DNA from: Escherichia coli
Lineage (GTDB): Bacteria; Pseudomonadota; Gammaproteobacteria; Enterobacterales; Enterobacteriaceae
Reading direction: 5' to 3' (one strand)
Assembly (NCBI RefSeq): GCF_003334255.1
Contig: NZ_QOWU01000104.1
Length of the DNA: 5,452 bases
Part shown: positions 1-298 of the stretch, one piece after another
Numbering within the stretch: the first letter of the stretch is position 1
How the letters are laid out: the number at the start of each line of letters is the position of its first letter
Made by a program: the position numbers and the translations under genes
The notes under the pieces: generated by a model
Seen by the model: the letters and a program-made list of their open reading frames with translations, nothing else
Told to the model about the DNA's origin: nothing
Databases searched by the model: none

Positions 1-188
1 CCATCACCGCCCCCGGTATCCCGCTCATGCTGGCGAACCCAGACACGCAGAGTCTCCGGCGTACAGCCAATCTTTGGAGCAATGGAACAAATTGTCGCCC
101 ATTGTGAGTCATATTCGCCCTGACTTTCCAGAACCATACGGACTGCCCGTTGACGGACTTCGGGGGAAAAACGAATATTTTTAGTCAT
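1..188 (-). CDS. IS3-family transposase OrfA (HTH-containing N-terminal protein of IS629), first 62 codons only; runs off the window edge
   Basis: ATG at 186-188 (minus) preceded by GAGG. Translation is [63 protein letters not shown], typical of IS3-family OrfA. Frame is open to position 1. Not in the ORF track because no stop lies inside the window. Confidence 0.8.
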
Positions 189-242
189 CCTGTTTACCTC
201 TTTCTCAGGAAGTTTAGTCTCCAGGATTCCCGGGGCGGTTCA
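1..242 (-). mobile_element. IS629-group (IS3 family) insertion sequence, left (IRL) end; the body continues beyond the window start
   Basis: Reverse complement of 166-242 reads TGAACCGCCCCGGGAATCCTGGAGACTAAACTTCCTGAGAAAGAGGTAAACAGGATGACTAAAAATATTCG, which I recognise from memory as the IS629/IS1203 left terminal inverted repeat plus orfA leader. A near-identical copy (3 substitutions in 77 bp) sits at 5376-5452. Terminus TGAACC is at 237-242 on the minus strand. Confidence 0.85.
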
Positions 243-298
243 GTTTTGAGGTTTTTGGCCAGTTCGTTAGCCAGAGCCTGTAACTGTTTTTCGTCCAT
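243..298 (-). pseudogene. 5' stub (18 codons plus partial) of an IS256-family (IS285/IS1414-like) transposase gene, interrupted by the IS629 insertion at 242/243
   Basis: Minus-strand ATG at 296-298. Translation MDEKQLQALANELAKNLK(T) matches, from memory, the N-terminus of enterobacterial IS256-family transposases. The reading frame runs straight into the IS629 terminus. Assignment rests on 19 residues only. Confidence 0.4.

Follow-up and report, generated by a model that had tools for sequence, protein, structure and literature searches.

The window, by which we mean the whole analysed stretch of 5,452 nucleotides, is part of an ireA plasmid of Escherichia coli. Over the part compared (positions 1–700), it is 100% identical to the 99.8-kb plasmid of E. 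coli G6/7 and G8 (NZ_CP060062.1). Positions outside the window refer to a stretch of this G6/7-type plasmid, L001, in which window position 1 is position 9001. The receptor gene ireA (433–2481, minus strand) is intact and encodes a TonB-dependent siderophore receptor of 682 aa that scores 1513.9 bits with the IreA family profile NF010011 (cut-off 1197) over residues 1–682 of 682. The gene shares 100% identity with its counterpart in pDETEC45, and 4 of 2049 positions distinguish it from ireA of CFT073. To its right follow an ORF annotated as a YagK/YfjJ-domain or inovirus Gp2-family gene (3255–3977, minus strand), istB and a truncated istA of IS100, and the left end of an IS629-type element (copy B; 5376–5452, plus strand), which adjoins the truncated istA at 5376. 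The YagK/YfjJ gene is kept beside ireA in the plasmid as well as the chromosomal versions of the module. On the other side, downstream of ireA, the window contains native ireA 3' flank that is not IS-derived and is collinear with CFT073, CFS3273 and LZSFT34 (379–432), the surviving 8-bp target site of IS1414, GACATTAC (371–378), an orphan remnant comprising nt 1–128 of the IS256-family element IS1414 (243–370, minus strand), and the left end of another IS629-type element of the IS3 family (copy A; 1–242, minus strand), to which copy B is 95.5% identical.

The native 3' flank (379–432) is near-identical in CFT073, CFS3273 and LZSFT34, regardless of the IS present. It holds a hairpin with a 10-bp stem (395–417) that is located 16 bp from the ireA stop codon and 17 bp from the octamer targeted by IS256-family elements. 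A terminator scan scored this hairpin as an intrinsic terminator on the plus strand only, which is antisense to ireA, and the strand of ireA has no T-run behind it. Both ireA and its 3' hairpin are untouched by the IS events described below.

The IS1414 remnant

On the minus strand, positions 298–245 encode MDEKQLQALANELAKNLK (18 codons). AC at 244–243 are two further IS1414 bases, and the IS629-type terminus begins at 242, in line with the original prediction of a transposase peptide that runs into IS629. The insertion had been placed 54 bp into the transposase gene, which is close to the exact junction at 242/243 after nt 56 of the ORF (18 codons plus AC). Translation of 298–1 yields MDEKQLQALANELAKNLK and then TEPPRES..., the latter being read-through into the IS629-type element. 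The proposed IS256-family identity on the minus strand was confirmed and the element is IS1414: positions 243–370 match nt 1–128 of IS1414 from ETEC H10407 in 127 of 128 positions (99.2%), compared with 73.8% identity to ISEc39. The peptide agrees with the transposase N-termini of three intact IS1414 copies in 18 of 18 residues, with that of a fourth copy in 17 of 18 and with that of ISEc39 in 14 of 18. BLAST searches with the stub returned many IS1414 copies at 97–99% identity, and E-values of about 1e-57 to 1e-62 show that the match did not arise by chance. IS1414 is described as an astA/EAST1-carrying IS of E. coli that belongs to the IS256 family (McVeigh et al. 2000, cited in PMC12585946). 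The reference transposases of IS1414 and ISEc39 score 427 and 424 bits, respectively, with the IS256-family model NF033543 (cut-off 150), which covers residues 43–371, and the 18 codons of the stub lie upstream of that region.

We placed the tip of IS1414 from the 8-bp duplications around intact copies. In H10407, IS1414 runs from GAGCCTGTACATAG to CTAAACAGGCTC (1314 bp) within a duplication of AGTTATGG, and other copies are enclosed by 8-bp duplications of TTACATGC, GTAATTTC and TATTGTCC. The tip in the window, GAGCCTGTACA (370–360), lies 62 bp beyond the stop codon of ireA. The left inverted repeat (370 to about 343) and the 5' UTR, a 72-nt leader, occupy 370–299, followed by the transposase start at 298–243. 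An IS256-family end at 299–432, with the boundary of the element right at the 3' end of the receptor gene, had been expected; instead, the element ends at 370, positions 371–378 are its target octamer and 379–432 are native flank that is also found in CFT073. A single copy of the octamer adjoins the tip, and the second copy would lie in the deleted interval discussed below. That GACATTAC serves as a target is seen from its duplication by ISEc39 in CFS3273 and its unoccupied single copy in CFT073. Among the other IS1414 copies, the octamers GTAATTTC, TTACATGC, AGTTATGG and TATTGTCC are loosely alike, a hint of a target preference.

The stub resembles IS1414 throughout nt 1–128, with the left inverted repeat (GAGCCTGTACATAG...), the 72-nt leader and the 18 codons, as well as in its 8-bp target. 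In contrast to the complete element, it keeps about 10% of the 1314–1315 bp and is devoid of the right end, the DDE domain and astA, and neither movement nor a product is to be expected of it. No IS1414 catalytic (DDE) domain was found in the window, and the right end (CTAAACAGGCTC) is absent from both the window and the IS629 flanks in L001. With no right end and no functional transposase, the stub is an immobile remnant. These 128 bp are unannotated in every RefSeq plasmid record that carries them.

The IS629-type element and its two flanks

The terminus TGAACCGCCCCGG of the IS629-type element is the reverse complement of window positions 230–242. Copy A spans 1310 bp in the full plasmid (L001 7933–9242) and has TG...CA termini; its ends read TGAACCGCCCCGGG at window 242–229, where the terminal inverted repeat starts at 242, and TGAATCGCCCCGGG at L001 7933. 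The ATG of orfA is at 188–186 on the minus strand, which leaves 62 codons visible in the window. An HMM search with this 62-aa fragment gave no match at 1e-5, and the full-length orfA and orfB of L001 were needed: orfB scores 313.8 bits on the IS3-family model NF033516 (cut-off 160). PGAP annotates orfA/orfB with a programmed -1 frameshift and an AL1L pseudoknot. The names given by PGAP vary, from 'IS3 family' for copy A to 'IS629 family' for a truncated twin and 'IS1203 family' for copies that are about 96% identical. In its length, its termini, the arrangement of orfA/orfB with a programmed frameshift and its IS3-family HMM match, copy A resembles the IS629/IS1203 group, and it appears to be intact and potentially active. 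However, the target duplication of 3–4 bp that is expected of a simple insertion is missing around copy A, the flanks being ...AAAAG (AAG) and GTTTT... (GTT). This absence points to a rearrangement and is no argument against the IS629-type identity.

On the far side of copy A, L001 does not contain the continuation of the transposase frame that had been anticipated beyond the IS629 copy. What follows in this identical plasmid is native spacer of the ireA locus, ...caagattAAAAG (the left flank reads ...ttaagattattttaatcaagattAAAAG), preceded by the 3' part of another IS256-family pseudogene that lies on the plus strand and is cut by IS2. Through its final AAAAG, this flank matches about 300 E. 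coli chromosomes including that of CFT073 at 99.3% identity. The spacer in CFT073, where the unoccupied octamer is preceded by ...caagattAAAAGcattacaacctggaaact, continues through AAAAGcattacaacctggaaact, GACATTAC and tgattac... directly into the ireA 3' flank with no IS in between. Both flanks of copy A therefore belong to one native locus. The other IS256-family pseudogene (L001 7158–7932, plus strand), with its likely right end ...GAGCGCTCTC, is located upstream of the spacer and is interrupted by IS2 in the plasmids. In CFT073 (L007 4018–5260), it is full-length but frameshifted.

The ireA locus of the window plasmid is of the CFT073 type. CFT073 carries the same module in a pathogenicity-island context, consisting of the other IS256-family pseudogene, the AT-rich spacer, ireA and the inovirus Gp2-family gene, with identities of 99.3% in the flank and 99.8% in ireA. 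The CFT073 locus differs in having no IS1414 at the octamer, and the left end of its IS629-type element adjoins the 5' end of the other IS256-family element.

The junction between IS629 and IS1414 is contiguous in four independent plasmid records (G6/7, G8, pN44b and pRHB13-C14_3), which argues against an assembly artefact. In pN44b (L006 1933–3242), a different IS isoform with a different far flank is found at the identical IS1414 junction. Its identity is 98.8% to copy B and 96.1% to copy A, the differences from the latter starting at nt 14. The isoform may reflect replacement of the IS, an independent hit or mis-polishing of a repeat.

Copy B and the inverted pair of IS629 elements

The junction at copy A had been proposed as a second IS-into-IS event in the same window, the first being that of copy B. 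Copy B does adjoin the truncated istA, but in the full plasmid it is followed on its far side by IncI1 trbA rather than by the N-terminal part that IS100 istA lacks. It carries GGC on both flanks (L001 14376–15685; region 14376–16090), a match that is probably due to chance given that the far side is trbA. Copy B likewise marks a rearrangement breakpoint and did not arise by simple insertion. We considered whether the missing duplication around copy A could be due to an inversion between copies A and B, which are in inverted orientation; here, too, the relevant observations are GGC on both sides of copy B and trbA on its far side.

The two copies (L001 7933–9242 and 14376–15685) bracket ireA in inverted orientation with their left ends facing the gene, an arrangement reminiscent of a composite transposon. 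The outer ends adjoin AAG in native spacer and GGC in IncI1 trbA, with no shared duplication, which does not support transposition of IS629-ireA-IS629 to this place as one unit.

Sister plasmids without IS629

Two plasmids, pDETEC45 (L002 5995–6010) and p2-S1-CAM-02-A (L003 6525–6540), are free of IS629 at the junction, where the sequence is ...caagaTT-CA-GTTTTGAGG. They agree with the flank as far as ...caagatt, position 288 of 293, and the native AAAAG is missing. Since intact IS1414 has GG rather than CA before GTTTTGAGG, we assign the CA to the IS629 terminus, of which it is the terminal dinucleotide. In the simplest reading of these sequences, AAAAG and IS629 without its last 2 bp would have been lost at a TT microhomology: caagaTT/aaaag[TGAAT...GCGGTT/CA]gtttt, where slashes mark the joined positions. 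The sequence expected of an IS629-free excision product is ...caagaTTCAGTTTTGAGG. In pDETEC45, the transposase frame reads ...KTES and then stops. We rejected pDETEC45 as an ancestral empty site, AAAAG being native sequence and CA coming from IS629.

Insertions downstream of ireA

The alleles of ireA form two groups. The first comprises the window lineage plasmids and CFT073 (at most 5 differences in 2049 positions), and the second, about 2% away, comprises CFS3273 and LZSFT34. Within the first group, the octamer GACATTAC is unoccupied in CFT073 and harbors IS1414 in the plasmids. CFS3273-type chromosomes (L005 3640–3650) carry an intact ISEc39 at the same octamer and in the same orientation, flanked by a duplication of GACGTTAC. 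In the LZSFT34 plasmid (L009), the octamer is unoccupied and ISEc39 is located 10 bp away with the duplication CCTGGAAA / TTTCCAGG. Three independent IS256-family insertions have thus occurred within 10 bp downstream of ireA. IS629-type elements are also found at different points of the ireA locus in CFT073, a Cambodian blood isolate and S1-CAM. A further IS629-type right end abuts an IS1414 left-end stub in the aggregative-adherence plasmid pDEC15A-1 (NZ_CP077478.1, L017 2500–2560), only 2 nt from the position of the window junction. This junction, …GGTTCA/TTTGAGGTTTTTGGCC, is in the opposite orientation and lies beside agg5A, not ireA. Judged by these two sites, the sequences suggest that nt 126–128 of IS1414 are a favoured IS629 target. 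The suspicion that an insertion hot spot or IS graveyard adjoins the receptor gene was well founded, as the three IS256-family insertions next to ireA and the nearby IS629-type end in pDEC15A-1 illustrate.

Discussion

Both flanks of copy A stem from the same native locus and no target duplication separates them from the element. It is therefore very probable that 242/243 is an IS629-associated deletion junction and not a simple nested insertion. Compared with the inferred ancestor, 18 bp of spacer, the second copy of the octamer and IS1414 from nt 129 to its end are missing between the flanks of copy A, which amounts to about 1.2 kb (1212–1213 bp). We infer the order of events and the side of the deletion as follows. 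IS1414 would have transposed into GACATTAC downstream of ireA, and IS1414 would then have received an IS629-type element at about nt 128. A subsequent deletion outward from the right end of IS629 would have taken what remained of IS1414 together with the next 26 bp, either as an adjacent deletion of the transposase/IEE type or through recombination with another, equally oriented copy of IS629. The sister plasmids pDETEC45 and p2-S1-CAM-02-A would later have lost IS629 by joining at the TT microhomology. An intact IS1414 at the octamer should be recognizable by the joint AACCTGGAAACTGACATTAC followed by GAGCCTGTTTAG, and IS629 inside a complete IS1414 by nt 129 onward (…GGTCTTCAGGG plus 0–4 nt) next to TGAATCGCCCCGGG. 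Among 5,426 complete E. coli genomes and the plasmids of PLSDB, we found neither an intact IS1414 at the octamer by ireA nor IS629 within an otherwise complete IS1414 there. The lack of such intermediate states in these two collections speaks against a deletion junction of this origin, and so does the pN44b isoform at the same junction, which a single insertion and simple descent do not explain.

We prefer the order in which IS629 entered IS1414 and the deletion then proceeded outward from its right end, since two independent IS629-type ends are located within 2 nt of each other in IS1414. Recombination between two IS629 copies is possible, and so is a deletion of the opposite polarity, even if we regard the latter as rather unlikely. 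Here, IS629 would first have inserted into the spacer at AAAAG/CAT, and a deletion from its left end (IRL) would have removed 18 bp of spacer, the octamer and 1186–1187 bp of IS1414 to end by chance at nt 56 of the ORF. Such a course is equally compatible with both flanks and with the missing duplication, and deletions associated with IEE/IS629 can indeed run from either side (PMC9943667). However, the IS629-type end of pDEC15A-1 gives nt 126–128 of IS1414 the appearance of a site favoured by IS629, not of an endpoint reached at random, and no locus was found in which IS629 resides at AAAAG/CAT with the spacer continuing behind it.

The independence of the hits at the octamer could be questioned if IS1414 and ISEc39 went back to a single ancient insertion that was later converted. 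The shared octamer and orientation would fit, but we consider this improbable. Up to its very tip, the stub shares 99% identity with IS1414 and 74% with ISEc39, each of the two ireA allele groups has a member with an unoccupied octamer (CFT073 and LZSFT34), and ISEc39 in LZSFT34 sits 10 bp away within its own TTTCCAGG duplication.

IS629 inside an otherwise complete IS256-family element, with the transposase gene continuing beyond it, was the original prediction. The abutting ends and thus the junction itself agree with it, and other IS1414 copies are indeed interrupted by IS629-type elements, at different positions, as in pAA of E. coli 042. For this plasmid lineage, simple nesting is nevertheless already refuted and has next to no probability left: the far side in the identical plasmid is native spacer and another IS256-family pseudogene on the opposite strand, neither IS1414 sequence beyond IS629 nor a target duplication is present, and the frame in pDETEC45 runs into a stop after ...KTES. 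What was seen as a nested insertion combines an insertion with the deletion of about 1.2 kb. Hardly more credible is an ancestral junction of the pDETEC45 type (...caagattca/GTTTTGAGG) into which IS629 inserted later; two plasmids do have this IS629-free form, but an insertion cannot recreate the AAAAG that is native in about 300 chromosomes, the CA matches the terminus of IS629 and not IS1414 (GG), and no duplication exists.

Overall, the junction is an ordinary insertion-plus-deletion scar of a kind that is already known, and it leaves the current understanding unchanged. IS629-adjacent deletions and IEE-promoted IS excision have been reported in EHEC (Kusumoto et al. 2011, as cited in PMC9943667). 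As in those deletions, one endpoint here coincides exactly with the end of IS629. The sister plasmids resemble IEE-promoted excision in that the IS was lost at a 2-bp microhomology with two terminal IS bases kept, and the CA scar agrees with published descriptions of IS629. In contrast to the EHEC events, those described here are found on commensal or ExPEC-type ireA plasmids, and a part played by IEE could be proposed by analogy only.

Whether the insertion sites are directed by sequence or structure is a more tentative matter. The bases 3' of ireA (CCTGGAAA-ct-GACRTTAC, before the hairpin) for the IS256 family and nt 126–128 of IS1414 for IS629-type elements might be such hot spots, although we think this less likely than not. 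If it were true, the locus together with the CA-scar plasmids would represent a natural before/after series for microhomology-mediated (IEE-type) excision of IS629 and adjacent deletion. The data lend anecdotal support to local insertion hot spots and to IS629-linked deletion and excision outside EHEC. The main value of the analysis is the correct annotation of the locus, with the true IS boundary 62 bp from ireA. Copies of IS1414 'decayed by deletion' are many and were found to be common in a survey of astA/IS1414 from 2025 (PMC12585946). In a wider context, the ireA locus illustrates on a small scale how virulence-associated modules become enclosed by IS debris and are transferred between islands of the chromosome and plasmids of the IncI complex.

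The end of an IS629-type element is present in p2-S1-CAM-02-A, 292 bp further upstream. This truncated twin is identical to copy A in 786 of 794 positions, and one might speculate that it results from a local re-insertion.
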